From Macrostomum lignano (Eukaryota), in assembly GCA_002269645.1 (NCBI GenBank), contig NIVC01004420.1:1-46616 (forward strand): a stretch of 46,616 bases of DNA, in the 5' to 3' direction. The translations under genes were made by a program, and so were the position numbers. Each line of letters opens with the position of its first letter. Within the stretch, counting starts at the first letter, position 1. This document shows, in pieces, positions 635-43,805 of this stretch. The notes beneath the pieces were generated by a model. It ran no database searches, was not told the DNA's origin, and was given only the letters and a program-made list of their open reading frames with translations.

Positions 635-1082
635 ACTACTTAACGCGTGTAAAGTGGTCGATTTTCAGCATATTTGACGCAAAAAACGCAAATTATACTA
701 CTATCTGAAAATGAAGTAAGTAGTATATGAAAACGTGATATATGTACACATAGCATACTTCTATATGTACTTGCATATGTACATTAACCCCGTCTATTCC
801 CAATCCTATATGTACATTGTCTACTTCTATGTCTACATGTAACATTAATCCCTATCTAAATTTCCCCAATGTACCTCTATATGTACACTGCATACTGTAC
901 TTGCATATTTAAACCCATATCTACTTCTAGGACAATTTCTATATGTACAGTGTCACTTCTATATATGTACATTAATTCCCAATCTACACGACAGTCCCCA
1001 GCTGTATTTGAAACCCTCTATACAACAGCAGCCAGTTTATGTAACATTCTCTCTCTCTCTTGGAGTAAACGAAAATTTCCTA
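635..1082 (+). repeat. Left terminal inverted repeat
   Basis: ACTACTTAACGCGTGTAAAGTGGTCGATTTT...GAAAATTTCCTA is the reverse complement of 10485-10938, with scattered mismatches and small indels. Confidence 0.95.
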
Positions 1083-1667
1083 CTCGAAACACCTGTATAC
1101 AGTGTATATTGCAGAGGTGGGGTGCGCTCGCCGGCTGTACAATCCGTTGCATGCGTCATCCCCCAGCCCTCAAGAATGAAAGGCTTCAATGATATGGTTC
1201 GGTACAAACGGCATTGTAAAGAGAAAGGAATATATATTTACAAAATCGATAAAATCAGTAGCATATTACAAGAAATAGATGATGCACAACATTACCAGCC
1301 AATAGAATATACAGAAAATTTACATTGTTTTTCAATAGTCTCCTTTTCATAAATGATTTTAAGCAAGTCTGACATGCAAAATATGTACAATTGCTTTTTA
1401 CATTGGCAATTTTACGCGCATACAAGGCAAAAATGTTTTATGTACCTTTGATGTATAGTTGTTCCTCTTCATAAAATATTTTATGTAAATTTGACATGTA
1501 AAATATGTACAACAAATAGATTTTACTCTGACAAATATACCGCACACAATACAAAATGTTTTGATGTCCATTTATAGTCAGTTTATAACCACAAGGGCCA
1601 GCATTATTTATAGCCATAAGGCCGGCTGCGCACAACCCGCCGCCCGTACACTCGTTTAGTCAGCACG

Positions 1668-2066
1668 CAGGGACTACTCAAACATCGGGACGGGAAACTA
1701 GGCAAATCATGGTGAAGTTATTACGAGGCTGGTTTGTTAGCAGCTGACGAGGCTGGCTGGCTTATTTGTATAGAGCGATACTTTGTTGTCTATGGTTATT
1801 TTCTATTATTTGAAGCTTAATTGTGATAACCGCTATTTCGACTGCAGTCCAGCAGGGGATGCTGGCATTATAGCAGCTAAGTTTCTGGCAGACGAGTAGG
1901 ACAAGCTCGATTTTTCTGCTTGGCATCAATGCCAAGAAAGTGCAGCGTTGTTGCTGCAAGTTATTTATGAGTCCGAACGATTAGCTACGAAACTCGGTTG
2001 AGCGAGAGCGATGGAAAAAGGCCCTACCGAACATCCTGGAGGTAGGCGCTATTTGAGTAGTCCCTG
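1668..2066. mobile_element. hAT-type MITE (399 bp)
   Basis: 15-bp TIR CAGGGACTACTCAAA / TTTGAGTAGTCCCTG with an exact 8-bp TSD TCAGCACG (1660-1667, 2067-2074). Excision restores pPolB ...QRVLT-KRVYG...PYGYK* in frame. Confidence 0.93.
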
Positions 2067-2409
2067 TCAGCACGCGCTGAAACGTCTTGTCCATATTGAT
2101 CGTATGGATGGTACAAGACGTCTTGTCGCGCCTGAACTGAAACTGCGACAGCTGCAGAGAGCCGCCGTGCAGCAGGGCGCTGCGCAGGTCCTCACTGCGC
2201 TCCCAAATCTCTGGCGTCAGGTGAATGCCCTTGCATTTCAGGACCTGGCTCCGGGCACCGGCCGCATCCTCGACAATGTAAGTGTAGAGCTTGGGCCCTC
2301 CACTTACAAAGTCGGTCGTTTGGCTGCCTGCAGGCACCTCGTCGTCCACATTCCGAGGCTCGTGCCATGGGCCGGCTCCCATTGGCCCTCGGAATGGCGG
2401 TAAACGACC

Positions 2410-2504
2410 CTGTGTGTGTGGGTGGGCAATTAGTCAGGTACTAAATCTTATTTACATGTCTATACGTAATCAATTCTAAAAGAATCTATCCAGCCAATAC
2501 TTAC
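2410..2504 (-). other. Spliceosomal intron in pPolB motif C (95 bp, phase 2)
   Basis: GACACCGACTC|GTAAGT...CTGACTAAT...ACACAG|GGTCGTTTAC. Removal gives YCDTDSVVYRHSEGQWEP. Confidence 0.9.
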
Positions 2505-2793
2505 GAGTCGGTGTCGCAATAAATGGCCCGTTCGCCGAGACCCTCCAAGGCCTCGTACAGGCAGGCGCAGTCGGGCCTGCTTGGTCGTAAGGACCCCCGA
2601 TTGGTACGTTGGAGTAGCGGAACGGCCGCTGATTAAAGTAGCGGTGCCGGTACTCCAGCAGCAGCAGCATAAACTCGCTGCCAATCGGCTCGCAGGCCTT
2701 GACCTGGAGTTTCGGATCGGTCAGCCGGGCGAGCCAGTCCTCGTAGCTGGACACAATCTCAGGTCATCGCGCTGACAGAATTTACCCCAGAGC

Positions 2794-2868
2794 CTGTGAA
2801 AATATTGGGTTTGTGCTGCTACTGTTAGTAAAATAAATATTTTAACAAGCAGAATTATGATTACTTTC
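2794..2868 (-). other. Spliceosomal intron in pPolB motif B (75 bp, phase 2, GA donor)
   Basis: AATTC|GAAAGT...TACTAAC...TTTTCACAG|GCTCTGGGGTAAA. Removal gives KIFLNSLWGKF. It has a perfect TACTAAC branch motif, but the donor reads GAAAGT rather than GTAAGT. Confidence 0.82.
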
Positions 2869-3424
2869 GAATTCAAAAAGATTTTCGCCACAAAGCGAAG
2901 TCCTGGGTTGGGCTCGACCCCGTCCAGCTTGACGCCTTCCTTGGAGTAAAAATCGGCAATTTAGGCAGCCCGCTCATCGTCAGTCATGCCGGGGGAGCCG
3001 CTCGACTCGGCCTTCAGCTTGAGAAAGGTGTTGACTCGCTGAACAGGCCGGTCCTCTGCTCTGTCCAGTAGGCTAGCGCGTGCCCGGCTTCCAGACGGTA
3101 GCCCAACTAGAAGGCCTTCCGCAGCTCCGGCGTTGCCCAGGTACCCGTCAGCGCCCGCTCCTGGTCTGAGTGGCTGCAGCACTCGCGGCTGCACTGCTCC
3201 TGCTGCTGCTCCATACAGGTGCGGCAAACCCCAAAAATGAGCTTCTTCTGCACCCTGTATGGCAACAGCGGAATGTGCAGATCTGACGGCGGCAGCACTG
3301 TTACTTCGGCAATGCCAAAGTAGCTGGCCAGCGCGTCAGAGTCGAGTGTCTGCGGCGTCGGGTGGTGCACCGGGTGGCCAATCGGGTACGCGTCTTTTGA
3401 TTGTACCGTCGGGTACAGAGAGAC

Positions 3425-3512
3425 CTGCCAGTTGAAATAAAACAGTATTTCTCATAAACTGTATTTCATATTTTGCAAAATATTCTACTACATTAGTAGT
3501 ATCACTACTCAC
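3425..3512 (-). other. Spliceosomal intron in pPolB motif A (88 bp, phase 0)
   Basis: GATGTG|GTGAGT...CTGGCAG|GTCTCTCTGTACCCG. Removal gives DVVSLYPTVQSKDAYPIGHP. Confidence 0.9.
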
Positions 3513-4728
3513 CACATCCTGATATTTGAGCGCCTCAGTATCACTGGCCATAGCATGCGGGATGAAGCATTCTACTCGACCACCGTAGAGCGCATCCTCC
3601 ATCTTGAGCGGTGCACGCAGATGGGCAGTTGCGGCGATAAAATCAGCCTGCGATGCCAATACAGTGTCATATTCATGCTCCCAAATGACACGAACACTGT
3701 AATTATGCCGCTCCAACTCGCGAGTGAACCGCTCAGTCTCGTGGCGGATGTGGCTCAGAGGCTGCCGCTTTAGTGGGTGGACAACATCCTGGTCGGGCAT
3801 ATACTGCTCGCAGCCATGGTAGAAGCAGCCATGAAACTGCAAAACAATGTTTGTAGCCTCATCGAAGCCTTTCACCTTGCGGCCGAGAATGACAGCCTGA
3901 ACAAATGGTTCAAGCCCATCGCAAATGTCTGCAATTATCGCCCTGTACTTGAGCTACACAGCCCTCGCGAAGCAGGACTGTGTCGCTCAAACAATAATCG
4001 AGATATTCCCGATTAAGGTTGAACAACTCGCCCTGTCGCGAGGCCAACCATGCACAGATGGAGTCGTATTCCTTGTTGGCCTTGCCGCCGTAGTAATCAA
4101 TAGCCGGGTAGGGGCCCACGTAGTTCCAATCGGCCGGCTTGTTGAACTCGTGGGGAAAGGTCCCCTTGGCCAGCTTTGTTGCAAGGCCCAGCGCTTTGGG
4201 AATTGTGCAAGCAGGATTGGCATAAAGTTGAGCGAGTTTTTAAAAACCAACTTGTCAACCGTCATGCACATTAGCCGGCTGCCTTGAAACACCACTTGTG
4301 GCCGCTTCTTGGCCAGGCCGTTGAGTAGAGCGCCGAGCAGCAAAATAGCATCGTAGTCAGATGCATTGTGAGCCGCAACTATGGCGCCGCCTCGGAATGT
4401 TGTGCTCAGCCAGGCGAAAAAATGCATTCAGCGGGCTCGAGCCCACTGCCACAAAGTCGGCCATTTGGCAGGCACAGTCTGAGTGGGTGACGCAATTGGA
4501 GAAATTCTCCCCCAAATCGACATTGACGGTCAGCAACATGTTGTCAGCAGTCAGTTTAGCCGCGACAAAATCATCGGCGTGCAGGTCCGCGCAGAGCACA
4601 GAAATTATTCCATCAAACGTTCAAACGCTCGAATATCAACCATATCTGCTGTGAGCGATACTGCATACTTGTAGTCTTTTGCCTTAAATTTAGGCAGAGC
4701 CTTTGCCCCGCAAGGCGCGCAATGAAGC

Positions 4729-4810
4729 CTGAAAAATTGGAGCGCTTGAAATTAGAATTGCAAGCGGCGGCGGCGGGTGAATGACTCATGAAATAAAATC
4801 AACTCCTTAC
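4729..4810 (-). other. Candidate fourth intron upstream of the pPolB exonuclease domain
   Basis: GTAAGG donor, TTCTAAT branch-like motif and TTTTTCAG acceptor, 82 bp. The flanking protein could not be recognised, so splicing is not validated by motif restoration. Confidence 0.4.
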
Positions 4811-4899
4811 CGTTGCCTTCGACAGTGTCGGGCTGGGGCGGGGGTGGAAATTTAGCCAAATCTGCAATTAAAATGTGCATGGTGACTAAAATTCTGACC

Positions 4900-7800
4900 G
4901 ATGGAGGGCAATTGTCTCAGTCGCCGCCTGACATCTTTCAGCGGCCGGGTCTGAGCACCGCGTGGCTTTGTGTAGGTCCGTGGCAATGGTGACCTCTTCT
5001 GGGAAGGGGGTCCACGGAGGCAGGGGTGCCGGTAGTTCTTGTGGAGTCAGCTGTCCGACTGCAAGGTTGGTCAGCCACTGGCCGATCCTCTGGAAGCACG
5101 GTTTGAAAGAAAGAGCCAGGACGTCTTCGTCAACGGGGTCCGCTTTCGGATCGGTTTCACTCTTGAGGAGAGCTTCATGAGCCCTGCAGCGGAGGCGGGC
5201 TTGACGGGCGGCGGGCGGGGTCCCCGGTCGGGAGGAGGTTCAGCCTGGTGTATTCTCTAGCAGCCTGATCCAGCGCTCTGAGGAATAGGGCAGGTAGGCC
5301 AGCCTCCGCAAGCAGGGTCCGCCTGTTAGTGATTCCAAGGGCAGCCCGTGATAATGCGGGCGCATTTGTTCTGTTCGGCTTCCAGCTTGTAGCGGTTCGT
5401 GGGGGCCGCGTGGGTGAACTAGATCGAGGAGCCATAGTCCAAGATGGAGCGTATGTAGGCGGTGTAGGCGGTTCGGAGGGTAGTTCTATCAGTTCCGAAG
5501 TGTTTGCCTGCGATGGCCAGCAAGCAGTTGCGTCGATTAGCCATCCTAGTTTTGACCAAATCGACGTGTCTGGAGAAAGTCAACTGGTCATCGAATTTGA
5601 GGCCCAGCCCAAGAAGGTGGATTCAGCTTCGTAACGCAGGGGCTCATTTTCGATGCAGAACCCCTTAGCGCACTTTGCCGCCACATTCCGCGGGATTGAG
5701 AGTGAAGGTGGTGAAGCTGCACTTGTGAGTGCTCAATTGGACTTTCCAGCGTTTAGTCCAACAAACAATGGCATCGAGGGCCGGCTGGGCGCAATCCGTG
5801 CACTCTTGCAGGCTACGGCCAGTGGTCAGTATTGCCGTGTCATCCGCGAAGAGAGATCGATGCACCCTATCGTCGAGGCCGTCGTCGATGTCGTTAACGT
5901 AGATCAGCCAGAGGAGGGGTGCGAGAACTGATCCTTGAGGGAGGCCGTCCGTAAAGACTCTCCAGTTGGAGCAGATGCCGTCCCAGCGGACTCTGGCGCG
6001 GCGATCAGAGAGGAGGTTCTTGACGAAGCGGATGACATGGGCCGGGATGCCGAGTCTGGCCATTTTATCATACAAGCCGGGTCGCCAGATTCGGTCGTTT
6101 TATTTTTTTATTAGAGGCAGGGGGGTTGTGTGCACCCTGGCGCACTTTAAGCGACATAGGCACACAACCGGCGAGAGGCATTACTACCCATTCCGCCGAC
6201 TCCCCTGAGCAGGCATACAAGCGCGCGGATACGTACGCAGGCACACAAGCACACAGGAGTGTACAGCGGCCCTAACTTTATATTATCGTTAGGCATGTGC
6301 ACTTCACTGCGCCTTGGGGGGTTGGCTCTCAAGGCCGTTAATTGCACGAGCAGAGCCAAGCCGAGATTCCAATTCAGCCCCAAATTAATGTGACTGCACT
6401 TGGAATCGAGCCTGGGTCGCTGGCACACCAGAGCAGCTGCGCTATCGCTGGGCTACGGCCCCCCTTAGATTCGGTCCTAGGCCTTGGCAAAGTCCAGGAG
6501 GATCAGGATAGCGCGCTCAGACTTGCCTTGCTCGAGGGCGTCAAAGATGGCCTGGGTGATACGGGCCAGTTAGTCGATCGTTGAGTGGCCTTTGCGGAAA
6601 CCGGCCTGGTTTTTGTTAAACAGGTTGCGCGATTCAAGCCAGTGGAAAAGGCGGTTCTGGAGGATGAGCTCGGCCAATTTGGCAATGCAGCTGAGAAGCA
6701 AAATGGGCCTGAAGAGTCAGTCTGCCCAGGGTCTTTCCCTTTCTTATGGATAGCGATGATTTCGGCACGCCTCCAAGCGGCAAGGATGGTGCGGTTTAAC
6801 CAGCAGTCGTTGAGGAGTTCGAGGAGGCGGCTTTTTCCCCGAGGGGAGGCTTGACGAAGGAGTTCATTGCTCGGGGCTTTCCCGTTTTTGAGCTGCTTGG
6901 TGGCCAGCTCCGGTTCGGTGTTGGTGATCGGGCTACAGATGTCGGAGCGGGTGCCGTCGCAGGTGCAGTTCAAGACTGCGCGGCGCACCTCTTGGATGAT
7001 GGGGCGGTCCTCAGCCTTATTTTTTCCAATTCTGGAGACCTCGGCATAGGCTCTGCAGAAGAGCTCCGCTTTCGCTCGGGCTGTGGCCGCGAGTGGATTC
7101 GATGGATAAATGTTGCCGCTGGCCGGACGTTCGAAGGCTGCGGCGGGCTTAGAGCTGGGTATGCGCCCATCGAAGCGTTTTATCAGCCTCCACATATCAC
7201 CATGGCTCTCGGAAATCAAGCTTCTTTTCCTCCTGGATGACACGGGCGGCCTCTTGTTTTAAGTCGGAGTACCGGCGGATGCTTTCAGGGTCATCGGGGC
7301 TCTCGATCAGGGAGAGGCGACTTTCTTCCCGGCGGTCCGCAGCTTTCTGGCAGCGTTCATTCCAGAAGGGCTGTCGCTTTCTGGGGCCGTTGCCGAAGGG
7401 GATGGCCTAGCGGGCCGCACCGGTGAGGGCGCTGGTGATCAGTTGATTACGGCGATCGGCGGAACAGCACGCCGAATTCAGTAGGTTTTTGATTCTAGCC
7501 AGCCTGGAGTCAAGGTCAACCCGGAAGGCCTGCCAGTCAGCCTTTTTGAAGTTGAACCGGCTGGGAGATTTCGGCTTCACAGGGTCGTTGGCGTCGAGAT
7601 TTACCAGCATCGGCAGGTGGTCAGAGCCGATACCCTCAAGGGTGCACCAGTCGGCGCGGCTGGCCAGGTCGGCTGTGACGATGCATAGGTCAGGAGCTGA
7701 TTTCCCCCCTGTAGCCGGATTAAGGTGGGTGTGGCCTCCGTCGATGAGTATCGACAGGCAGCAGTTAGTAGTCCACTCTTCAATCGCAGTACCTAGCTGG

Positions 7801-8940
7801 TCCTCCCTCTGGAAAGGGTCCCAGCAGGTGGCATGCGCGTTAAGGTCTCCTGCGATAAGCGTGCGAGGGCCGAGGATGAACCCATCTGGGTTGAAGGTGG
7901 CCTCGATGTCCTCACGGGTGCTGCGGCGAGCCGGTGGAACATAGGTGTTTATGACTCGGATTGGTTTAGCGCCCGCGAGAAAGATTTGGGTGCCATGGCA
8001 GAGCAAGTGTGATCGTTGGGTTGCCTATGGGCCGACTGTAGTCTTTTGAATGCGGTGTCATCTCTAACCAGGGTGAGGATCCCGCCTTGGTTTGCTTCAG
8101 CGGGGCCGTTCGTCTCGTCCGGGCAGTAGTCGTTTCGTCCGCTGATGTTGTAGCCGGCAAAGGAGGGGCCGTAGATTTAGGGCGGAGGAAAGTCTCTTGG
8201 AGCATAACGACGTGGGGGCGCTTGTCGGCGATGAGTTTGGCGAGTTCTGTGGCGCGTTTCTTGAGGCCGTTGCAGTTTAGGATAAGGGCAATCACCGGGG
8301 ATTTGCGCCTTCGGGTCCGCACTTCCGGCTCCGGGGGCGGATCCATTAGGGCGGGCGTACCGGTGTTAGCCTGGGAGCGCTACCGTCTTTGGCGGCCGTG
8401 CTGGAGGCCGTGCCGCTCGTTTGAAGTTGTTTCACGTCGTGGCACGCCGTGCGGAGCCTTTCGGCAGGTCTGTAGCCGCCAGATTGTCGTGGCGAATTTA
8501 GCACCGGCGTACTGGTAGGTGTCGGTTTGGCTGGCGGCGGCGCATTGTCAGTCTTGTTTCGGCAGGGTTGGCATTCCCAAGGGGTGCCAGAGACAGAAAA
8601 GTGGCGAAGTGCTTTAGGCTGATGTCAGTGCACCTTCTGTGGTTCCAGGTGCGGCACCTCGCACATTGTATCGAACAGTCGGCTCCATAGCCGAAGTTCT
8701 TTCTACAGGCTCCACACGGGAACCTGGGTCCCGGGTTGGCTTCGATGTCGCCAGCAAGGAGCAGAAATGTTGTAAACCAGCTCAGGAGGTGCGACCATGT
8801 TCTTCGATTCTTGGGCATCGACGACAGTCTTCTGGGGACGCGCAACCTCCCTTCGCGACCGGTTTGACAGGTCACGGTCAGTTGCGCAGTGTGAGTGAGA
8901 CCGGAACAATTGGCGCGGGTTTCCTCGCGACGCCACCCCT
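4900..8940 (-). mobile_element. Non-LTR retrotransposon (Ingi/Vingi- or I-group-like): 2A peptide, PHD finger, APE, RT; frameshifted, 3' end missing
   Basis: ATG at 8818; LLLAGDIEANPGP (8749-8726); C4HC3 PHD. APE motifs LNCNGL, MLQET, AGDLNAH, PDL, GSDHLP. RT motifs QAGFR, LLDFAKA*DRIW, GLPQGSVLAPLL, LFADD. A PPW connector at ~5000 follows, but no RNase H and no poly(A) or repeat tail. Boundaries are approximate. Confidence 0.88.
6097..6466 (-). mobile_element. tRNA-derived SINE inserted in the LINE RT
   Basis: Head GGGGCCGTAGCCCAGCG (A-box-like)...GGCTCGATTCC (B-box-like), A-rich tail, and exact 10-bp TSD AGATTCGGTC (6087-6096, 6467-6476). Removal rejoins DRIW-RPGLYDKM. Confidence 0.92.
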
Positions 8941-26028: not shown

Positions 26029-29000
26029 TGGCTGACTGGCTGACTGAATGACTGACTGACTGTCACACATACCTGTCCCTTAGCCGAGGGTCCCAGGCTG
26101 CCGGGCGGCTGCGGCAGCGGGATGGCACCGGGGCCCCGGTGGGCGAGCAGCAGCTGGTACACCAGGAAGAGCTTGTCGCCGTCAGTGCCGGACCTGTTGG
26201 CGTAAATCTCCAAGCCGTACAGGCCGGGCGATGGCGGCAGCGCGCGGATCAGCAGCTGGGCCTGGACTACACGGCTGACGCAGGCCGACTCGAGTGGCTC
26301 AGATTGATGAGGCGACTTCAGCTTCACCATGAAGCGCAGCCGGTCGGCCTCGCTACCGGGAACCTGTGGGAAGGGGGTGGGCGGCGGTGGGATCTGGGAG
26401 TTAAAATGAACTCTGAAATAGTTATTGAGGATTTTAGAGCACTGGAAGATGGGATTTGAGGACACCAGAGCACTGGGAGATGGGATTTGAGGACACCAGA
26501 GCACTGGGAGATGGGATTTGAGGACACTGCACTGGGAGATGGGATTTGAGGACACCAGAGCACTGGGAGATGGGATTTGAGGACACTGCACTGGGAGATG
26601 GGATTTGAGGACACCAGAGCACTGGGAGATGGGATTTGAGGATATCAGAGCACTGGGAGATGGGATTTGAAGATATCAGAGCACTGAGAGATGGGATTTG
26701 AGGACACCAGAGCACTGGGAGATGGGATTTGAGGACACCAGATCACTGGGAGATGGGATTTGAGGATATTAGAAAATTAGGAGATAAATTTCGGGATTTT
26801 AGAAGAGGATCTTTAATTGGGATCAAGATATTCACCTTAAGCATGACATCCTCTGACAGGGTATTAGTAGTGAACAGCGGCAGGTCCTCGGCCGGGTTCA
26901 TGGCGGACAGCTTGTACTTAATATTGGCCTCGTTGGGCCCGTAGCTGGTGTTCTGGCACATGGGGAACGGCTCCACACGAGGCGACCGGACCACGGCGTC
27001 GAGGCGGTATTCGCAGACGGCGCCAAATACCAGCTGTTCTTTGCCTGGCGCCGGCATTGGCGCCTTCGAATCGCCGGATTCGACCTCCTTGGCGTAGAGG
27101 ATGAGCCGGTAGGCGCCCGACTGCGGCGGCCGCAGGGCGAAGGTCGCCGTCGAGTCGCGCGGATCGTAGAAATGGACGCCGAAGCGGCTCAGCCGGCGGG
27201 TGGATTCCTCCTCCTCTTGCTGCGCCTGCGGCTCGGGGGAGGTGCGATTGGCGGACACTATGTACTTTTATTAATTGATCCAAACAAACACATTAGACGC
27301 TTGGATTAGGCAAGTTAAGCAGAGTTGGCCACGGTTAGTACGCATTTTAATAGGCTTAAGGGCAAAGTGAGACTACATAAGATATTTAAGATGCGAGTGT
27401 ATGTGTGGAAGTTGTAGTCTAGTGGTCAGAGCGTCGGACTCACGACTGAAAGGTCGTGAGTTCGATTCTGGACCCACTCGGAACAATTTGTGTCCTTGAT
27501 CAAGACACCCAACTCTGCATTGCTTCAGTTCATCCAGCTGTAAAATGGGTGCCAGCATTAGCTGGGGTAATTGAGGGTGTGTGGCGACCCCCAGACCTTG
27601 GACTGAACAGCCGTACGCAGCCTTCAGATGCGCCGCGCAATAGCTGCGGCTGAGCTGTCGGTTGCACATCTGCCCAATTGGGGCAGGTGTAATCAATTAT
27701 TTTTATTATTATTACTAGGCCAACGCACTCGCAGCCTAATATTCTGCAAGTTAAGCAGAATTGGCTATGGTTAGTACGCACCTGAATAGGCAGCTTGAAG
27801 ACCGACCCCAAGCTCACCTGCGCGCTACCCTCAGCGGCTGACACGCTGTGAGCGCCCAGCGTGAAGGTGAACGCCAGCCGGCTGGCCGAGTCCCAGGGCA
27901 CGCCGAGCTTCACCAGCAGCGCCGGCTGCACCTCCGGACAGTCGGCACCGGAGGCGGCAGCGTCGGCGGCGGCCGCATCGGCGTCATAGTCAATGCGGGC
28001 CAGCAGGTGGGAGCGCAGGTCGAGGCCGTGCTTGAAGAAGGCGCTTTTCACCGGGGCCAGCGCCTCGAACTGCAGCTTGGTGATTGGCTCGCGGAGCAGC
28101 TGCCACTCTTCGCGGTCGGGCAGGTGAGTGTACACCTGAGGGATTTAGCATGGGGATTTGGGGATTTCGGATTTGCTAGGATTGTAGAGGCTGAGAGTTT
28201 GAATTTCTGAACAGGGGATATGGGATCTTAAGATTTCTGAATGGGGATCTTGGGATTTCTGAATAGGGGATCTTGGGATTTCTGAATAGGGGACGTTGGG
28301 ATTTCTGAATAGGGGATGTTGGGATTTCTGAATAGGGGATGTTGGGATTTCTTAATAAGGGATCTTGGGATCTCTAAACTGGGGATGTTGGGATCTTTAA
28401 ACAGGGGATGTTGGGATTTCTGAATATGTGATCTTAGGATCTCTAAACAGGGATGTTAGTTAGGATTTCTGAATAGGGGATCTTGGGATCTCCGAATAGG
28501 GGATCTTGGGAATGGGATCTCTAAACTGGGGATGTTGGGATCTTTAAACAGGGGATGTTGGGATTTCTGAATATGGGATCTTAGGATCTCTAAACAGGGA
28601 TGTTAGTTAGGATTTCTGAATAGGGGATCTTGGGATCTCCGAATAGGGGATCTTGGGATCTCCGAATAGGGGATCTTGGGATCTCCGAATAGGGGATCTT
28701 GGGATCTTTAAACAGGGGATGCTGGGATTTCTGAATATGGGATATTGGGATTTCTGAATAGGGGATACGGGATGGATTTCGAATGCTACAATGGGGATTT
28801 CTGAATACAATGAGTTAATAGACAAGCCTCACCAGCTTAGCCGGACTCGGCAGGAAGTAGAATTCGTCCAACTCGTAGCGCACATTATCCAATGTACTCT
28901 GCTTGCCAATGAGCCGCCTGGCCGCCCAGTGACAGTCAACCAGCTGCCACTGGCCCGCAACCAGCACGGCGTTCCAGCTGTGCCGGCCGCGAGTGTCCGA

Positions 29001-30756
29001 GTCGAACACCATGCCCGGGTGGTACTCGGCGCCCTTGGCGTAGCCGGCGATGATCTGGCAGGGGATGTCGCAGGCTGAGCACAGTGTGTAGAACGCTTGC
29101 GCATAGGTGCTGGTGCCGGCCTTTATGCCCATGAGGATGGACTCGGGCGAGTCCGGCTTGTAGCTTGAGAAGTGCAGCTTGCTGAGATCCTTGGAGCACA
29201 GCCAGAAGAACAGGATGCGCACCTGCCGGACACGGCGATATCAGGGCTGGATGGATGACACTTTTAGGGGTATGCGCGAAATTCCAGTCCATGTGCAATT
29301 TTAAGAAGTCCCTGGCTGACAAAGCTAATAGACTTCTAAAAAAGCATCTGGACTGGAGAGAAAACTATACCAGTTAACATTATCAAAGAGATGGAGAAAA
29401 TTGACAACAGTATTATGTAGCTGGTCCAGGTGCTATCTATAAATACCCTTGGCACTTCTATAAAATAGAATCTTGACTGGAAGCCCAGTATATATATGTA
29501 TGAAATTCTTCAGATGGCAAACCTTCTCCAATTCGTCGTTAACTCGAGGCCCGTAGATCAAACGCCAGATGAGCTCTTTGAAATTCTTCGGATCGTGTTG
29601 CTGAGCAGTCTCCAAGGCGTGCGTGTCAGTCCGGCGGAATTGCTCCTGGGCCGGCTTCTGATAGCCTGCAGCCGGCGGCAGCTGCGGCTTCGGGTCAACG
29701 GCGGCCGGCGCCGGGGCCTGCAGCGACTTTCCGATGGCGTCCATGTGCGACGGGAGGGAGAAGTCCGACGGCGGCGGCTCCACCACGACTGTGGGGGAGT
29801 AGGAGCAGGCAAATGAATGGGGATTCTTCCCAAGCAGGGAATCAATATTTACTGGATTGGGATTCTTCCCAAATGTGGGATCAATATTCACTGGATTGGG
29901 ATTCTTCCCAAATATGGGATCAGTATTCACTGGATTGGGACTCTTTATAAACGAGAAAATAATTCAAAATGAGAACACTCACCCTTCTGTCCGTATTGAC
30001 CCTTCGGCTCCCAGGTCTTGGCGTCTGAAACGGGCAAACCAAAAGCAACAAAAAAGAGTAATTTCTATGAAAGCTAGCTCATGCACCCTGCAATTGCAAT
30101 GCACTACTCACATTGGTCGTGATGAGCAGGCTTGAGCACTGATGTCGGAGCCTGACGCAGCTGCTCCAAATTCGATGGCATGGCAGTCTGCGGCAAAAAT
30201 AAAACGAAACATTCCATATTGAAATCCATAAATCAGTGCGGGTGATTAAGTTAGTAGGCAGCAAAACAAAATCAAGATTATGACACTTGCTAGCATGATT
30301 GTTAAACAGATTAATGCATGATAAATGAGCACTAATTCGCCAGCTTACAAATCATAAAGCATCAATCAAAATGCGCTAATTAGATCGAAGCCATTCTCAC
30401 TTTAACCACTAAGCATTAAACTTAGGATTAGCAGCAGCATTAATTTTGTTAGTAAGTAGTGGAGTAATACATAATTCTAATAGGCACTTGATTTTTTAAT
30501 TTAATAATGTTAGTTAGAGTTTTAGCCAGTGAAATTTAATTCACTATTAAAATACTGATTTGATATTGATAATATTGATTTGTTGTTAGAAAATCAGAGA
30601 AACCTGACTGCAGTGCCGAGCCAACACAGAATGCTGTTAAAGCTGGATTATCAGGACAGTATAACTAAATCCATTCCACTACAGCTCGGGATTTCTAAAG
30701 ATGGACAGACAGACACACAGACAGACACACAGACAGACGGACAGACAGACACACAG

Positions 30757-30788
<32 letters not shown>

Positions 30789-30798
30789 GCAGACAGAC

Positions 30799-30851
<53 letters not shown>

Positions 30852-30870
30852 CATAGACAGACAGACAGGC

Positions 30871-30913
<43 letters not shown>

Positions 30914-33900
30914 AAGACAGACGGACAGACAGACAGACAGGCAGACAGACAGACAGACAGACAGACAGGCAGGGTCAGTATGCCAGCCTGTCACTTTTTA
31001 ATAAAAAGCTCCGCATCAGAGCAAGACCAAACAAATGATGGCTGGGACAGGCAGGTCGGGGGAGGGCCGCAGCTACCTTCCGCTTGATCGTGAGGTTGCT
31101 CTCGGTGGAGGCAGGCATGGCCGTGTAAGCCGGCTTCCTCGACGCGGGCGCATTCGGCGAGGCGCCGCGCGAGCCGCGGTTGCTGCCGCTGCCGCTGCCG
31201 GGGCCGGAGCGGCGCTCCAGCAGGGTGCCGGACTCGGGATCCAGGTCGTGACTGCGCAACGGTTTGCCCAGCAACACGTCGCGCATGTAGGGCTGCTGCG
31301 CCAGGTAGGCATCATCGTCCGGATCGGCAGATTCACCGGGTGCAGCGGCTCCCGGCCTGGCCTGCTGCTGCTGCTGGTACTGCTGCTGGTAGGGCTGCTC
31401 AGCCGGATGCTTCGCCTGACCGCCAGGAGCTCCCGGCGCACTGGCGTAGCCTGGCGCCCGCCTAGCGCTGGCCATCTCATCCGATGGCTGGCCCGTCTGG
31501 CGCGTAGCATTTATATTGGATAAATATACTTGAAAAATTCTTAACAACACTACTTACTAGATTGAAAGAAGTAGAAAAGTAAGCTCATGTCTAGAAAAAT
31601 CCGAAAAACAACATTGAAAGAAAAAATAGCGCAGACGAGGGATTGAGAAATCGTCGTCTTACCAGCATATCGGGCGGCGGTGGCGGCAAAAAGTCCGGCG
31701 GCATGTCATCTGGACCGGCTGACAGCTGCTGGTCTCTGCCGGGGCCGTAGCGCGATCCCGAGCCGGGGCCTCCTTGGGTGCCTGCTGGACCTCCATAGCC
31801 GCCGGGACCTCCTTGGGTGCCTGCTGGACCTCCATAGCCGCCAGGACCTCCTTGGGTGCCTGCTGGACCTCCATAGCCGCCAGGACCTCCTTGGGTGCCT
31901 GCTGGACCTCCATAGCCGCCAGGACCTCCTTGGGTGCCTGCTGGACCTCCATAGCCGCCAGGACCTGGGCCGCCGGCTCGGCTAGGCGAAGCGGTCTGAC
32001 CGCTGACGCTGCTAAACTGCGGCTGCTGCTGCTGGTCGCCGCTGCTGCCGGGGGCGCAGTACGGCTTCGGGCCCAGCTGGGAGGCCATGCCGCCCCCTGG
32101 GCCGCCGCGCGGCGAATTGCGGCCGCCGCCTGCGGCTGGCGCAGACATGTTCGCGCCAGATTGTGGCGCCGGAGCACCGGAACCAGAGTGACCACCGTAG
32201 CGATAGGGGTCGCCTTGCACAGTCTGCGAGAGTTCGGGTTTGGAATGAATACAGTTTGAGGCTTTAGCGGCAGCTAAGAAAGAGCGCGCCAAAGTCTGGT
32301 AACAGAACGGCGGTTTTGGCATTTGTGCACTCAGCGAGACACTAGGTGGCGCCGAGCTACACATTTAGTGGCGCCGAACTATTGATAGATATTTAGTGGC
32401 GCCAATCGAACTGTAGAAAAGAACCAAATACAATATCAAGTGCATACGAGTGTAACAAGTGTAAACAATACGAGCCGTGTAAATGAACACCGCGTACTTT
32501 TCAATCTAAACAATAACCCATACGGACCCATAGGTCATAAGCCATGTTTATGCCAGAGGCTTCAATCATTAAGTGAATGGCATTGCGTCAAACTTCCACA
32601 TCATATGGGAACTGGTCGTGTCTACCGCACAGCCCCTTTATGGAATTAACCGGAGTGGAATTCAACCATAGGAAAACTATTCAAGGCCGTCCCAGATCCC
32701 CGCACACGCAGGCACGAATGATGGAATTCCAAAAATGGAAATCTGCAGTGCGGATTGCCGAGCAAAACTGACCAAAATCTGTCCTGGCTTCAGCTGACTG
32801 CACTTAGCTTTCAACCTTCCATTTTCATTTTTCCGATCCAGATGCTTCATATATTTTGGAAATCCATGGATTTGTCACATAGACAGACTTATTTAGAGGC
32901 TAAGCTAGTCATAATTTACTACCAAATACGCTATTTCAGTGCACATTTTTACTAAGCTATATGCATATTTCTATACACTTTTATGCTACGTAGAGTAACT
33001 TAGCAAATATGGTAAGGTCGCAGTGGTGGGTCCCTTAGCGTCACCCGATGGGGGTGAGAGTGCATGGGTTACGCATGCATTACAAATACAGTGAGACTTC
33101 ATTTCACTTAACAAGCAACCAATAAGCGTTTAGTCGGAAAAGGAATGAGGGAGAACTAAGTTAGACTTTCTCGTCACACGTATAACAACTATACGCACAC
33201 GCAGCTGGCTAAACACAGTTTTCTATGCATAAAAAAACGCTCGCCTCGATTCGGGACACGCCACGAATAGCGAACCATTTTTGCGAATTTTTTTTCCAAC
33301 TGGAGGGCAGATGTCCTACAGAGCTATACACAAGACAGCAAAATTGGCTAACAAATATTCTAAATCTGCAAGGTTTTTGCGCAGCACTATTTCTAATTAT
33401 CTGGAGAGTGGGAGCTCTTTGTTAGTGTAAAAAATTCTCGCTTTTGCGCCAGCCATAGCAACGGCTTCCTGGTTCCTGTCCTGTCTGTCTTTGTGTCTGC
33501 GCCTGTGTCTATGTTTGCGTCTTTTTGTCTATTCCTGTGTCTGTCTGTGTCTTCGTGTCTGTTTCTGTCTTTGTGCCTATGCCTGTCTTTGTGTCTGTTT
33601 CTGTGTCTTTGTGCTTACGCCTGTCTTTGTGTCTGTTTCTGTGTCTTTGTGCTTACGCCTGTCTTTGTGTCTGTTTCTGTGTCTTTGTGCTTACGCCTGT
33701 CTTTGTGTCTGTTTCTGTGTCTTTGTGCTTACGCCTGTCTTTGTGTCTGTTTCTGTGTCTTTGTGCTTACGCCTGTCTTTGTGTCTGTTTCTGTGTCTTT
33801 GTGCTTACGCCTGTCTTTGTGTCTGTTTCTGTGTCTTTGTGCTTACGCCTGTCTTTGTGTCTGTTTCTGTGTCTTTGTGCTTACGCCTGTCTTTGTGTCT

Positions 33901-36900
33901 GTTTCTGTGTCTTTGTGCTTACGCCTGTCTTTGTGTCTGTTTCTGTGTCTTTGTGCTTACGCCTGTCTTTATGTCTGTTTCTGTGTCTTTGTGCTTACGC
34001 CTGTCTTTGTGTCTGTTTCTGTGTCTTTGTGCTTACGCCTGTCTTTGTGTCTGTTTCTGTGTCTTTGTGCTTACGCCTGTCTTTTTGTCTATTCCTGTGT
34101 CTGTCTGTGTCTTCGTGTCTGTTTCTGTCTTTGTGCCTATGCCTGTCTTTGTGTCTGTTTCTGTGTCTTTGTGCTTACGCCTGTCTTTGTGTCTGTGCTT
34201 ACACCTGTCTTTGTGTCTTCCTGTGTCTGTCTGTGTCTTCGCGTCTGTTTCTGTGTATTTGTGCCTATGCCTGTCTTTGTGTCTGTTTCTGTGTATTTGT
34301 GCCTATGCCTGTCTTTGTGTCTGTTTCTGTGTCTTTGTGCTTACGCCTGTCTTTGTGTCTGTGCTTACACCTGTCTTTGTGTCTTCCTGTGTCTGTCTGT
34401 GTCTTCGCGTCTGTTTCTGTGTATTTGTGCCTATGCCTGTCTTTGTGTCTGTTTCTGTGTATTTGTGCCTATGCCTGTCTTTGTGTCTGTTTCTGTGTCT
34501 TTGTGCTTACGCCTGTCTTTGTGTCTGTTTCTGTGTCTTTGTGCTTACGCCTGTCTTTGTGTCTGTTTCTGTGTCTTTGTGCTTACGCCTGTCTTTGTGT
34601 CTGTTTCTGTGTCTTTGTGCTTACGCCTGTCTTTGTGTCTGTTTCTGTGTCTTTGTGCTTACGCCTGTCTTTGTGTCTGTTTCTGTGTCTTTGTGCTTAC
34701 GCCTGTCTTTGTGTCTGTTTCTGTGTCTTTGTGCTTACGCCTGTCTTTGTGTCTGTTTCTGTGTCTTTGTGCTTACGCCTGTCTTTGTGTCTGTTTCTGT
34801 GTCTTTGTGCTTACGCCTGTCTTCGTGTCTGTTTCTGTCTTTGTGCCTATGCCTGTCTTTGTGTCTGTTTCTGTGTCTTTGTGCTTACGCCTGTCTTTGT
34901 GTCTGTGCTTACACCTGTCTTTGTGTCTTCCTGTGTCTGTCTGTGTCTTCGCGTCTGTTTCTGTGTATTTGTGCCTATGCCTGTCTTTGTGTCTGTTTCT
35001 GTGTCTTTGTGCTTACGCCTGTCTTTGTGTCTGTGCTTACACCTGTCTTTGTGTCTTCCTGTGTCTGTCTGTGTCTTCGTGTCTGTTTCTGTCTTTGTGC
35101 CTATGCCTGTCTTTGTGTCTGTTTCTGTGTCTTTGTGCTTACGCCTGTCTTTGTGTCTGTTTCTGTGTCTTTGTGCTTACGCCTGTCTTTGTGTCTGTTT
35201 CTGTGTCTTTGTGCTTACGCCTGTCTTTGTGTCTGTTTCTGTGTCTTTGTGCTTACGCCTGTCTTTGTGTCTGTTTCTGTGTCTTTGTGCTTACGCCTGT
35301 CTTTGTGTCTGTTTCTGTGTCTTTGTGCTTACGCCTGTCTTTGTGTCTGTTTCTGTGTCTTTGTGCTTACGCCTGTCTTTGTGTCTGTTTCTGTGTCTTT
35401 GTGCTTACGCCTGTCTTTATGTCTGTTTCTGTGTCTTTGTGCTTACGCCTGTCTTTGTGTCTATTCCTGTGTCTGTCTGTGTCTTCGTGTCTGTTTCTGT
35501 CTTTGTGCCTATGCCTGTCTTTGTGTCTGTTTCTGTGTCTTTGTGCTTACGCCTGTCTTTGTGTCTGTGCTTACACCTGTCTTTGTGTCTTCCTGTGTCT
35601 GTCTGTGTCTTCGCGTCTGTTTCTGTGTATTTGTGCCTATGCCTGTCTTTGTGTCTGTTTCTGTGTATTTGTGCCTATGCCTGTCTTTGTGTCTGTTTCT
35701 GTGTCTTTGTGCTTACGCCTGTCTTTGTGTCTGTGCTTACACCTGTCTTTGTGTCTTCCTGTGTCTGTCTGTGTCTTCGCGTCTGTTTCTGTGTATTTGT
35801 GCCTATGCCTGTCTTTGTGTCTGTTTCTGTGTATTTGTGCCTATGCCTGTCTTTGTGTCTGTTTCTGTGTCTTTGTGCTTATGCCTGTCTTTGTGTCTGT
35901 TTCTGTGTATTTGTGCCTATGCCTGTCTTTGTGTCTGTTTCTGTGTCTTTGTGCGTATGCCTATCTTTGTGTCTGTTTCTGTGTCTTTGTGCTTACGCCT
36001 GTCTTTGTGTCTGTTTCTGTGTCTTTGTGCTTACGCCTGTCTTTGTGTCTGTTTCTGTGTCTTTGTGCTTACGCCTGTCTTTGTGTCTGTTTCTGTGTCT
36101 TTGTGCTTACGCCTGTCTTTGTGTCTGTTTCTGTGTCTTTGTGCTTACGCCTGTCTTTGTGTCTGTTTCTGTGTCTTTGTGCTTACGCCTGTCTTTGTGT
36201 CTGTTTCTGTGTCTTTGTGCTTACGCCTGTCTTTGTGTCTGTTTCTGTGTCTTTGTGCTTACGCCTGTCTTTGTGCCTGTTTCTGTGTCTTTGTGCTTAC
36301 GCCTGTCTTTATGTCTGTTTCTGTGTCTTTGTGCTTACGCCTGTCTTTATGTCTGTTTCTGTGTCTTTGTGCTTACGCCTGTCTTTGTGCCTGTTTCTGT
36401 GTCTTTGTGCTTACGCCTGTCTTTGTGTCTGTTTCTGTGTCTTTGTGCTTACGCCTGTCTTTGTGTCTGTTTCTGTGTCTTTGTGCTTACGCCTGTCTTT
36501 ATGTCTGTTTCTGTGTCTTTGTGCTTACGCCTGTCTTTGTGTCTATTCCTGTGTCTGTCTGTGTCTTCGTGTCTGTTTCTGTCTTTGTGCCTATGCCTGT
36601 CTTTGTGTCTGTTTCTGTGTCTTTGTGCTTACGCCTGTCTTTGTGTCTGTTTCTGTGTCTTTGTGCCTATGCCTGTCTTTGTGTCTGTTTCTGTGTCTTT
36701 GTGCTTACGCCTGTCTTTGTGTCTGTGCTTACACCTGTCTTTGTGTCTTCCTGTGTCTGTCTGTGTCTTCGCGTCTGTTTCTGTGTATTTGTGCCTATGC
36801 CTGTCTTTGTGTCTGTTTCTGTGTATTTGTGCCTATGCCTGTCTTTGTGTCTGTTTCTGTGTCTTTGTGCTTACGCCTGTCTTTGTGTCTGTTTCTGTGT

Positions 36901-39900
36901 CTTTGTGCTTACGCCTGTCTTTGTGTCTGTTTCTGTGTCTTTGTGCTTACGCCTGTCTTTGTGTCTGTTTCTGTGTCTTTGTGCTTACGCCTGTCTTTGT
37001 GTCTGTTTCTGTGTCTTTGTGCTTACGCCTGTCTTTGTGTCTGTTTCTGTGTCTTTGTGCTTACGCCTGTCTTTGTGTCTGTTTCTGTGTCTTTGTGCTT
37101 ACGCCTGTCTTTGTGTCTGTTTCTGTGTCTTTGTGCTTACGCCTGTCTTTATGTCTGTTTCTGTGTCTTTGTGCTTATGCCTGTCTTTGTGTCTGTTTCT
37201 GTGTCTTTGTGCTTACGCCTGTCTTTGTGTCTATTCCTGTGTCTGTCTGTGTCTTTGTGTCTGTTTCTGTGTCTTTGTGCCTATGCCTGTCTTTGTGTCT
37301 GTTTCTGTGTCTTTGTGCTTACGCCTGTCTTTGTGTCTGTGCTTACACCTGTCTTTGTGTCTTCCTGTGTCTGTCTGTGTCTTCGCGTCTGTTTCTGTGT
37401 ATTTGTGCCTATGCCTGTCTTTGTGTCTGTTTCTGTGTCTTTGTGCGTATGCCTATCTTTGTGTCTGTTTCTGTGTCTACGGTACATGTGTCTGCGCCTG
37501 TTTCTATATATGTGTCTTTTTGCCTGTCTGTGTCATGTCTGTCTGTGTCTGTCTCTGTGTCTGTCTATGCCAGTGCCTGCATGTGTGTCTATATCTGTGT
37601 CTGCCTGTTTGCCTGCCTGCCAGTCTCAATAGGTTTGCGCAATGCCATCCAAATGTCCACCGGAAGCAACAGCATACATAGCTTGTACGAGTATGTATTT
37701 GATGCGCGCTACTGATGCGACAATCTAAAAAGCTAGGGTAACTTTTTCTACATGCAAACTCTCTCTACTGTACTGTACGTACAGATCTGCTGACCAAAGA
37801 GTGCTGTAAAGGCAGGCATCAGTTGAATTGGCCTAATCCAAGCCGGGTAAAAAGTCAACAGTTATTAACAGAGTAAATATTGTATCAAAATTATTTCGCA
37901 AAACAGAGCTAGCGCGGTCAGAGTTACCTGAAATCTATCCAAGCTCCAGCCTTTGTAGCCTTGCTAATTCATGATGCTTAGATTGAATTTAACAGAGCTT
38001 TGAAAGTCGGCTGCGGTGCAGACAGGACCGGCAAGCATTTAACACACACATTTTCACGCGGCCCAGGCGTGCTGTTTTGTAAACTTATTTGCCAACAGCA
38101 GCAGACTTAAAAAGTCAAGATAAGGCCAAGCTTGATTTCTGTACACTGGATTCTATTTTGCTTAATTAACTACTGATAAGAATGGTTCAGCTAATTGAGC
38201 TGGGTGCGGTTATAACACAAATAACTGATAACAGTGCGTACAGAAAATTCATGTTAATTATTTTATCCAACTCAATCTTACCTTGGCAGTAGTGCTAGGA
38301 ATGTACTGTTGCTGCTGTCTGTGCGGCTGCTGCTGCTGACCCTGCGGCATGGACATCTGGCCGCCCTGAAGGTTGAGCTTGTGAAACTCGGGCTGGAAAA
38401 GTGCATAACACACGCATAAGGCTTGCAATACATATGCCACAAAACAGTTCAAGCCGCAGAGTGAAGGTTCTGATATTTACAAGTTAGAAAAATAAACAAA
38501 AAACAAGCTCTGCTAGACACAATCGAGGGGCTGGCTGGAATGGCATTACCGCAATAGGAATGGCCAGAGGGCACTCGCACTGGGTGGGTCTGCCTGCCCA
38601 GGACTACTATAGAGAAAGACAATCTGGATTGGGAAACGACTTGCGAGTCTCGAGTGGGTTCCCAACTTTTGACTGCCACAATTTGACTGTCACAATTCGA
38701 GTTTCACGATCTGACTGTCACAATTCGAGTTTCTCGATCTGACTGTCACAATTCGAGTTTCACGATCTGACTGTCACAATTCGAGTTTCACGATCTGACT
38801 GTCACAATTTGAGTTTCTCGATCTGACTGTCACAGTTTGATTGTCACAATTCGAGTGGCACAATTTGACTGTCACGATTTGTGTGCTACGATCTGACTGC
38901 CGCAATTTGACTGTCACAATTTGACTGTCACAATTCGAGTGTAACAATTTGAGTGTCACAACCTGACTCTTAAAATTTGACTGTCTCAATTTGACTGCCA
39001 CAGTTTGACTGCCACAATTCGCGTGTCACAGTTTAATTGTCACAATCTGACTGTCACAACTTTGTATTATAGGGGATCGTTTGTAAATTTGAAGTATGAA
39101 ATAGGACAAAATTTGCTTTACTTTACGACTACAGAATACGCAGAAGTTAATAACTAAAGGAGTGTCAGTTAGAGCTCTGTCTCTTTCCCAGATTATTCCG
39201 TCTTGAGCTTGGCATTCATGGTGTCTGCCTTGTCTGTCTGTGCGCTGCACAGCCAGTGTCTTTCATTCTCGCATTTATTTACCTATAGATAGCATGCCAT
39301 GAACTGTATGAGTACTGAGCTCGCGGCCTCTATTAAACTCCATCATCATAGCTGCCTCATAATGCTAGCAACTCACTAATGCTGAGTCCTTTTTCTTTGC
39401 CGTTGTCTCTCTGTGTTTAAGATACAATACTCTATTAAGAGACTCTTTTACTCAAATTTATGCAAATATTAAGCATTAAAATTAATTCTTTGACATTTAA
39501 GATAGGATGAATCGCTAGGGCTAGCAGTCTAGTGGTTAGAGCGATTCTGGACCCACTTGGAACAATTTGTGTCCTTGATCAAGACACCCAACTCTGCATT
39601 GCTTCGGTTCACCCAGCTAAAAATGGGTGCCAGCATTAGCTGGGGTAACTGAGGGTGTGTGGCGACCCCCCAGCCCTTGGACTGAACAGCCGTACGCAGC
39701 CTTCAGATGCGCCGCGCAAATAGCTGCGGCTGAGCTGTCGGTTGCACATCTGCCAACTAGTTTCAATGTACGCTTTCGCGACAGGCGCCTCTCACCTCGG
39801 TATCCGTGTACGGCGCAGGCAGGTCGCCAAGAGGCGCAATCTCATAATTATAATTGTACATCTCTCTTGGCGGGGTTGTGCCAGCGAACTGGTTGCCACC

Positions 39901-42900: not shown

Positions 42901-43805
42901 GCATGATGGGCTAAGGATTAAAAGAAGTCAAGACAAAACCCGGATCCGCAGGCACACCTGTCAATCAGTTCTTCTCCATAGTGCAGCTTAAACGTGAATG
43001 ACGCCCTCTTGCCGTAGCCCAGCGCCATCTGCAGCTTGCCCTGCTTGGTCCAGACCACGCCGTGAGTCGCCTGCTCAAACGACATGCCGCACTTGAAGAA
43101 ATGCGATTTAGTCAATGGCAAATCTTCGAATTGTTCAAGCGTTAGCGGCTGACGCAGCAGCTGCCACCGGGGATCCTCGGGATAGTGGCTGTACACGGCC
43201 TGCTGCGGCTCCATCATAAAATAGAAATCGTCGTATTCGTACACGAGATTCTCTGGCGAGTTGTTCTCCGAGCTCAGGTAGCGCATCGCCCAGTGCGCGT
43301 CCACCAGCTGCCAGGCGCCGTCAATTTTGATGACATTCCAAGAATGATTGTGCGCCTGGTTGCGGAACACGCAGCCGGGCCGGTACTCCACGCCTTTGGC
43401 GTAGCCGGACACGGTGACGCAGTTGAGCTGGGCGAAGCTGCACAGCAGCTCGTAGATCCTGGCGAATGTACCCCGCTTATAGTTGGATAAGAACGCTTCT
43501 GGCGAGCCTTTCTCAGCCTGGGCGAACTGGATATTCTTCATGTCTTTGGAGGTCATCCAGCGGAAGATGACGCGAGCTCGCTCGAGCTCGGTGAGGCGCA
43601 CCCGGTACACCAGGTCCCACATCAGGTCGCGAAAGGTCGGATGCTCGCGTCGGCTCACCTCGATGGCGTGCTCGTCAATTTTGGCGAACACCTTGGGATC
43701 ATCGTAGACTTGATGCTTGAGAAAATGTGGGGGTTTTGGGTCAGGACTGCGGTCAATGACCTGCTGGCCAAGGTTAAACGCGTCCGGTGCCCTGTGCCAG
43801 TTCAT
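25167..43805 (-). CDS. Hillarin/KY-like protein with two transglutaminase-like modules (~1,690 aa); exons 43805-42958, 40793-40330, 40004-39796, 38392-38282, 32223-31663, 31496-31077, 30187-30112, 30024-29983, 29788-29523, 29222-28833, 28135-27818, 27225-26836, 26363-26073, 25838-25167
   Basis: Two sets of motifs (GYAKG.EY.PG, HSWN, WQLVD.HWA, YE.D.FYF, H.P....WQLL), each followed by beta-rich repeats (GLE.YAN, .CEYR.). All 13 GT-AG junctions are phase-compatible as traced. The donors at 31076 and 27817, the acceptor at 27226 and the 5' start are less certain, and more 5' exons may exist. Confidence 0.85.
25862..26065. repeat. (GACT)n microsatellite, intronic
   Basis: Direct reading. Confidence 0.95.
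26445..26770. repeat. 31/28-bp tandem repeat, intronic
   Basis: GGGAGATGGGATTTGAGGACACCAGAGCACT and a 28-bp variant. Confidence 0.9.
27407..27716 (+). mobile_element. tRNA-headed SINE (second family), copy 1, antisense in an intron
   Basis: A-box-like TAGTCTAGTGG, B-box-like GAGTTCGATTC, central CCAGCTGTAAAATGGG block reminiscent of CORE-type SINEs, and an (ATT)n tail. Near-identical body at 39517-39756. Confidence 0.85.
28190..28800. repeat. Degenerate ~22-23-bp tandem repeat, intronic
   Basis: GGGATTTCTGAATAGGGGAT(C/G)TT variants. Confidence 0.9.
29815..29942. repeat. ~39-bp tandem repeat, about 3 copies, intronic
   Basis: GGGATTCTTCCCAAA...ATATTCACTGGATT units. Confidence 0.85.
30703..30970. 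repeat. (GACA)n microsatellite, intronic
   Basis: Direct reading. Confidence 0.95.
31766..31968 (-). repeat. Coding 39-bp tandem repeat x5 ([13 protein letters not shown])
   Basis: Lies inside exon 32223-31663 and preserves the frame. Confidence 0.9.
33480..37625. repeat. 4.1-kb 38-bp satellite with higher-order variant cassettes, intronic
   Basis: GTGTCTGTTTCTGTGTCTTTGTGCTTACGCCTGTCTTT, about 100 units; the plus strand is extremely A-poor. Confidence 0.97.
38670..39060. repeat. Degenerate 28-bp tandem repeat, intronic
   Basis: GACTGTCACAATTCGAGTTTCACGATCT, decaying to a GACTGTCACAATTT core. Confidence 0.85.
39517..39756 (+). mobile_element. tRNA-headed SINE, copy 2 (31-nt deletion in the head, tail absent)
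   Basis: Aligns with 27407-27675 except that 27434-27464 is missing. Confidence 0.85.
40826..42285. repeat. 15-bp tandem repeat, about 96 copies, intronic
   Basis: TAGATC(C/T)CTGCATT(C/A). Confidence 0.97.
42290..42830. repeat. 32-bp tandem repeat, about 16 copies, intronic
   Basis: GATTAGAAGGGAGGCCTGATCCCTGCATTCCG; no spacers between units. Confidence 0.95.

Follow-up and report, generated by a model that had tools for sequence, protein, structure and literature searches.

Polintons, or Mavericks (adintoviruses, Eupolintoviridae), are the described systems closest to the mobile element analysed here, which shares with them a PF03175 polymerase, a weak Vsr match, inverted repeats and target duplications of 6 bp. 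The portions available of two studies describe Polinton core genes as intronless (PMC8097293; 10.1101/2022.07.12.499685), whereas the element has up to six introns. It also measures 9.5 kb against the 13–25 kb of Polintons, lacks their integrase, capsid, ATPase and protease, and ends in ACTAC..GTAGT where they end in (AGT)2..(ACT)2.

A protein-primed polymerase expressed from a spliced nuclear mRNA is found in the adenovirus E2B unit, where splicing joins leaders and a tiny first exon and the catalytic body is one open frame; the catalytic body of the element, unlike that of E2B, is itself split by introns. Eukaryotic linear plasmids, transpovirons and bidnaviruses are, to our knowledge, cytoplasmic, mitochondrial or virion-borne, and we know of none that inserts with 6-bp duplications, whereas the element is chromosomal and spliced. 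The available part of one account presents them as capsid-less or segmented linear replicons with polymerases of the TP-vOTU type (10.1101/2024.03.18.585575). Spliceosomal-type insertions inside Polinton-like elements, as seen here, are reported for introner-invaded Polinton-like viruses of dinoflagellates, where, in the accessible text, they are mobile, belong to several families, mostly postdate integration and lie mostly outside coding regions (PMC12166617). The introns of the element are, in contrast, fixed, orthologous between families, non-dispersed and required for the reading frame. Nematode Mavericks also carry intron-bearing genes but, as far as the accessible text describes them, these are captured host genes beside an intronless core (10.1101/2022.07.12.499685), whereas here the core replicase is split. 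Our literature search returned no account of conserved spliceosomal introns in the polymerase of a Polinton, or of the same introns in close relatives, and the Macrostomum lignano literature examined does not mention the element; Repbase, Dfam or supplementary files may list the family.

Introns of the polymerase gene

The window, contig NIVC01004420.1 (46,616 nt), carries a Polinton-type protein-primed family B polymerase (pPolB) gene on the minus strand. It holds a dead copy of a repeat-ended mobile element of about 9.5 kb, and the polymerase gene is a pseudogene. One terminal inverted repeat, on the polymerase 3' side, starts ACTAC (635..865), and its counterpart at the opposite end finishes GTAGT (10716..10938); the 6-bp target duplication is imperfect in the window and exact at a duplicate locus on C89. 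The last exon, which runs from where motif C ends to the stop codon (1604..2409, minus strand), is interrupted by a secondary insertion, a 399-nt MITE (1668..2066) whose inverted ends measure 15 nt and whose target duplication measures 8 bp; we take it to be hAT-like. Upstream, all on the minus strand, lie the intron within motif C (2410..2504, phase 2), the frameshifted exon joining motifs B and C (2505..2793), the intron within motif B (2794..2868, phase 2), the exon joining motifs A and B, with stops and frameshifts (2869..3424), and the intron within motif A (3425..3512, phase 0). A remnant of the large exon, encoding the exonuclease and a VSR-like insert (3513..4519, minus strand), has frameshifts and a 180-bp deletion near 3896, and a deletion of about 1.2 kb at 4519 cuts the N-terminal exon, of which 4520..4728 remains (minus strand), and also took out one intron. 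Beyond it lie a further intron of 82 nt with GT..AG ends in phase 1 (4729..4810, minus strand) and a short second exon (4811..4861, minus strand). A decayed non-LTR retrotransposon, a LINE fragment with endonuclease and RT (4900..8976, minus strand), stands where the first exon with coding sequence and the greater part of the first intron would lie, and the non-coding arm of the element (8976..10715) has a TATA-like box near 9070. Farther along, at 25000-43900, the window holds many tandem arrays, and scattered among them on the minus strand are the exons of a transglutaminase/KY-like host gene.

The first-pass annotation had proposed that three AT-rich segments with splice signals divide the gene, and the segments do lie on the minus strand with the ends that it gave, measuring 88, 75 and 95 nt (segments 1 to 3, inside motifs A, B and C). 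That they are real spliceosomal introns is practically certain. The segment-2 donor is non-canonical in the window copy and GT in 32 of 37 copies. Removing the segments restores the frame only locally, since the exons still hold stops, frameshifts, deletions and insertions. The count of three introns proved too low, the gene having up to six, and both the intron at 4729..4810 and the terminal repeats at 635 and 10938 had been overlooked.

Several lines of evidence bear on the three segments. Their GC content is 0.28, 0.28 and 0.36, against 0.53–0.61 in flanking coding DNA, full-length public records aligned to the window cross each of them with practically no residue gap, and none of 79 outside relatives has an insertion in motifs A, B or C. 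A DNA search of the same genome (41 matches; 40 of 51 candidates scored) recovered the segments in every fetched copy that aligns across them (33, 37 and 34 copies, some rows being duplicates of one locus, as with window/C19/C89 and C2786/C3085/C4430; independent insertions are hence fewer than rows), and an intron-less junction was seen in none of 86 stretches. GT..AG ends are present in 30/33, 31/37 and 32/34 copies, around interiors that vary freely, as in U2 introns, and lengths range over 81–116, 66–78 and 74–114 nt. These lengths are not multiples of three in 17/33, 10/37 and 22/34 copies. Segment 1 is an open multiple of three in 16 of 33 copies, where read-through is possible; its reading as a coding insert was rejected on the 17 of 33 copies with other lengths, the RNA-type contigs that skip it and the 79 relatives that lack it. 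In the sister copies checked, the segments appear neither as coding sequence nor as unrelated inserts, the outcome that the first-pass annotation had named as counter-evidence.

A search with PF03175, which gave 119 matches with 91 of 974 candidates scored, exposed a second family, with about 60% protein identity to the first. At its 13 loci, GT..AG introns occupy sites 1, 2 and 3 in 13, 13 and 12 cases (one extra non-GT pattern match being set aside), at positions and in phases identical to those of family 1, and the same introns recur in 13 of 20 further loci; a fourteenth locus, C234, does not belong to family 2, and its polymerase is a decayed intron-less relative. Two upstream introns, including that at 4729..4810, are also common to both families, and the long first intron is recognized by RNA in family 2 and by pattern in six family-1 copies. 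Intron sequences are no closer between families than shuffles. The introns are old: their gain preceded the divergence of the two families and probably fell in a long period of residence in the host lineage.

Splicing was assessed on assembled contigs from 8 of 24 listed runs, none of them recorded as RNA and 18 of the 24 guessed to be so. For a family-1 sister, introns 1 and 3 are skipped by contigs of three runs from three studies and of guessed RNA type (X3, X5 and X6), intron 2 is skipped by contigs of X5 and X6, and two upstream introns are skipped in single runs each; the deep DNA-like run X16 shows no skipping among the joints listed. For a family-2 copy, contigs of X1, X7 and X10, again guessed to be RNA, skip five introns, the 761-nt first intron is skipped in X1 and X7, and one X7 contig covers two junctions; among the joints listed for the DNA-like run X15, no skipping is seen. 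Each of the three motifs is contiguous in one GenBank nr record, and proteins 90–98% identical to the sister carry the Macrostomum lignano label, many automated models splicing these sites. With run types guessed, the introns thus appear to be removed from RNA and kept in DNA in sister copies. The junction check that the first-pass annotation proposed has hence favoured it, and its claim that spliceosomal introns divide the polymerase gene is upheld by their conservation across the lineage and their splicing in transcript-type data of sister copies. An acidic gene of about 330 aa in family 2 (L087:6662-7741, intron 7576-7667), without a Pfam match, is also spliced in X1, X10 and X7.

The three polymerase-domain intron sites fall in sequence windows at the 96–97th conservation percentile (top 4%), and the single upstream intron scored lies at the 15th, a pattern noted post hoc. 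The placement of the introns in conserved motifs may be due to chance, to retention because unspliced RNA has no activity, or to descent from mobile elements that target such motifs, for instance inteins or self-splicing introns.

The polymerase and its element

Fragments around the window segments match Pfam DNA_pol_B_2 weakly, and a search for pPolB domains of the kind suggested at the outset identified a protein-primed family B polymerase, with matches to PF03175 (E 1.4e-43) and to the phi29 polymerase (E 2.2e-7, profile A2). The Vsr profile match is weak (E 0.018), and the structure model has a mean pLDDT of 76. Cys and His motifs picked out by eye, together with analogy, point to putative terminal-protein and vOTU-like domains in the polyprotein. 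The exons are under purifying selection, with dN/dS of 0.118 among family-1 copies, 0.058 among family-2 copies and 0.139 between families (40 copy pairs sampled per comparison, open exons only; dS about 1.9 between families). Many copies are decayed, all four tested exon stretches being open in 9 of 28 and 10 of 12 copies. In a FastTree phylogeny of 38 rows, also foreseen by the first-pass annotation, the two intron-bearing families form one long-branched clade, sister to VSR-type pPolBs of molluscs, echinoderms, cnidarians and insects (support 91) and far from five other local polymerases. Among the best 150 matches listed from 1.84 billion representatives, M. lignano records reach 58–100% local identity and all others at most about 43%. 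No relatives were found in metagenome contigs; IMG/VR yielded six distant loci, in five of which the polymerase is one long open frame of 1100–1900 aa.

The polymerase copies belong to units bounded by inverted repeats, with ACTAC at the start and GTAGT at the end. These ends are present in 35 of 35 elements, which were chosen by them, and the terminal inverted repeats span about 220–950 bp in polymerase-bearing copies, within the 100–1500 bp expected of such elements. Exact 6-bp target duplications flank 23 of 25 family-1 and 14 of 14 family-2 elements, at many unrelated sites. Size is 9.36–9.71 kb in 21 of 34 elements, non-coding palindromes included; 10-kb fetches favour elements below 10 kb, and repeat-pair spacings in two candidate lists have the same mode. 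The two ends match exactly over their first 40 nt in 30 of 34 elements, against 5 of 281 between-element pairs. Within the first 26 nt, in a layout common to both families, ACTAC-x-TA and G(A/G)TTTT enclose a 17-nt cassette that varies block-wise between elements and is identical at both ends of one.

With eleven queries taken from local Polintons, none of the genes for integrase, capsid, ATPase and protease was found in 35 two-ended elements (best E 0.94), while the queries matched three control elements with E down to 1e-158, and none of 73 PF21738 matches lies inside an ACTAC..GTAGT element. Variants carry as cargo a PC4-like gene, a dUTPase or an unknown gene of about 330 aa; a family-1 variant (L038:4683-7837, C1263) has both PC4-like and dUTPase genes, the former resembling the PC4-like gene that local intronless Polintons also possess. 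Many elements with these ends are non-coding palindromes, derivatives built from the arm corresponding to window 8976..10715. One type returned 41 matches at 96–100% identity (40 of 198 candidates scored), an identity that marks these palindromes as young and recently spread. At G000:C303:572722-582109 (L152) and about 20 other loci, perfect non-coding palindromes of about 9.4 kb have family-2 ends and 6-bp duplications. Nested and rearranged copies cluster at G000:C157:55000-91000, and derivatives at L069 (C2132), L061 (C1091) and L156 (C1944) contain inserted THAP/P-like or mariner-like transposons, labelled by eye.

Canonical Polintons of the same genome measure 16–18 kb, have single-frame polymerases and show AG..CT wherever ends are resolved, a motif also published for vertebrate Polintons in the available part of PMC8097293. 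The ACTAC..GTAGT elements do not share it, and their ends are the inverse of the AGT..ACT of local intronless Polintons. At least four canonical Polinton-like families have integrase, capsid and ATPase, namely L103-L105 (C2696), L093/L131 (C211), L107/L094 (C114) and L096-L106 (C506). Two canonical Polinton-like families seem to use a polymerase other than the standard pPolB, one of them with a primase-helicase, and integrase matches number more than 150 genome-wide. The element resembles the replication module of a Polinton and differs from members of that group in integrase, capsid module and end motif. The virus-like self-synthesising element first proposed as carrier is hence not a complete Polinton, the four genes being absent from all 35 elements and the end motif inverted.

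Proposed working and rival readings

We favour, with reasonable confidence, a spliced Polinton derivative that likely replicates itself by protein priming and likely borrows an integrase, its introns being spliced in sister copies and the window copy being dead. In this model, host Pol II and the spliceosome would produce the mRNA, and unspliced RNA would yield an enzyme broken in all three catalytic motifs. The polyprotein, comprising terminal protein, vOTU-like protease, exonuclease, VSR-like insert and polymerase, would prime on a linear copy that has been excised, at its ACT-repeat ends, possibly assisted in some variants by the PC4-like single-strand binding protein. Replication through a panhandle or template switch would equalise both ends and shed palindromic derivatives; a jump-back role for end repeats is argued in the accessible part of PMC8097293. 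Because the duplications are of 6 bp, a retroviral-type integrase acting in trans would reinsert the copies. A search for this helper with an integrase query, in which 150 of 1757 candidates were scored and every one was at least 65% identical, did not find it, nor did one with the end sequences of capsid-bearing elements, and a PF04665 search gave four weak matches. Integrase-bearing local Polintons with resolved ends all show AG..CT and none AC..GT; the obvious helper therefore may not fit.

In a rival reading, the element belongs to a multipartite virus of Polinton-like type, as one of its segments or as its packaged satellite, and an ACTAC-ended partner has integrase and capsid, perhaps split by introns. 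We judge this unlikely. The narrow size range, shared by the palindromes, is what a packaging limit would give, but the 10-kb fetches are biased towards elements below 10 kb; the end motif is unlike that of every local Polinton with resolved ends, and bidnavirus segments have common termini in the available part of PMC8502044. Candidates scored for terminal repeats amount to 40 of 219 and 40 of 275, which leaves room for a partner, but all fetched elements with these ends bear the polymerase or are non-coding palindromes, and an end-variant pattern gave 80 matches against 167 for its control, with neither viral gene nor partner at the nine loci examined. A bolder version is possible though doubtful: a new class of self-replicating DNA element in animals, nuclear and gated by introns, coding only for the polymerase, marked by an end code of its own and fixed at 9.5 kb, which an unseen partner or helper would package and integrate as satellite or segment of a multipartite Polinton. 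With the same hesitation, ACTAC and the shuffled 17-nt cassette might be read as the end code of such a replicon, and the catalytic-motif introns as a switch restricting it to the host nucleus.

Introns, purifying selection and expression are also traits of host genes, and some copies are duplicate loci, as they would be in a domesticated host polymerase family multiplied by segmental duplication and now immobile. Such an origin is very unlikely, since inverted ends and a separate 6-bp duplication mark every copy, the flanks being unrelated, a derivative harbours one copy and a canonical Polinton one derivative, the near-identical palindromes indicate recent spread, and many copies are decayed. 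Still less credible is the reading of the segments as introners or MITEs that recently entered an integrated provirus, which the evidence largely refutes. It has a precedent in the dinoflagellate Polinton-like viruses (accessible text of PMC12166617), and introns 2 and 3 of one family-1 copy are more alike than 200 shuffles, a likeness missing from family 2. An introner would place the same sequence across unrelated genes, whereas all 36 matches of the segment-1 sequence lie at polymerase copies; the introns keep fixed positions and phases in both families, which stand at dS about 1.9, and no copy without the introns was seen.

Significance of the lineage

The spliced derivative of Polintons favoured here is partly visible in existing resources. 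The first-pass annotation had predicted that surveys based on open reading frames would miss the lineage, and this is true in part: automated UniRef models of M. lignano already splice these sites and call the products DNA polymerases, without element context. For that context and for the conservation of the introns no published description was found. Published surveys need intact open reading frames or several core genes together, and a spliced lineage with only the polymerase escapes them.

The lineage shows a path from virus to resident nuclear transposon, in which capsid and integrase are lost and introns gained while spread continues. Introns lodged in the top 4% of conserved sequence windows bear, furthermore, on how introns originate and persist. 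Lastly, the element appears to be transcribed and spliced in a laboratory flatworm in which RNAi is available, and questions of Polinton replication, such as protein-capped linear intermediates, the homogenisation of ends and integration in trans, would therefore be directly observable.
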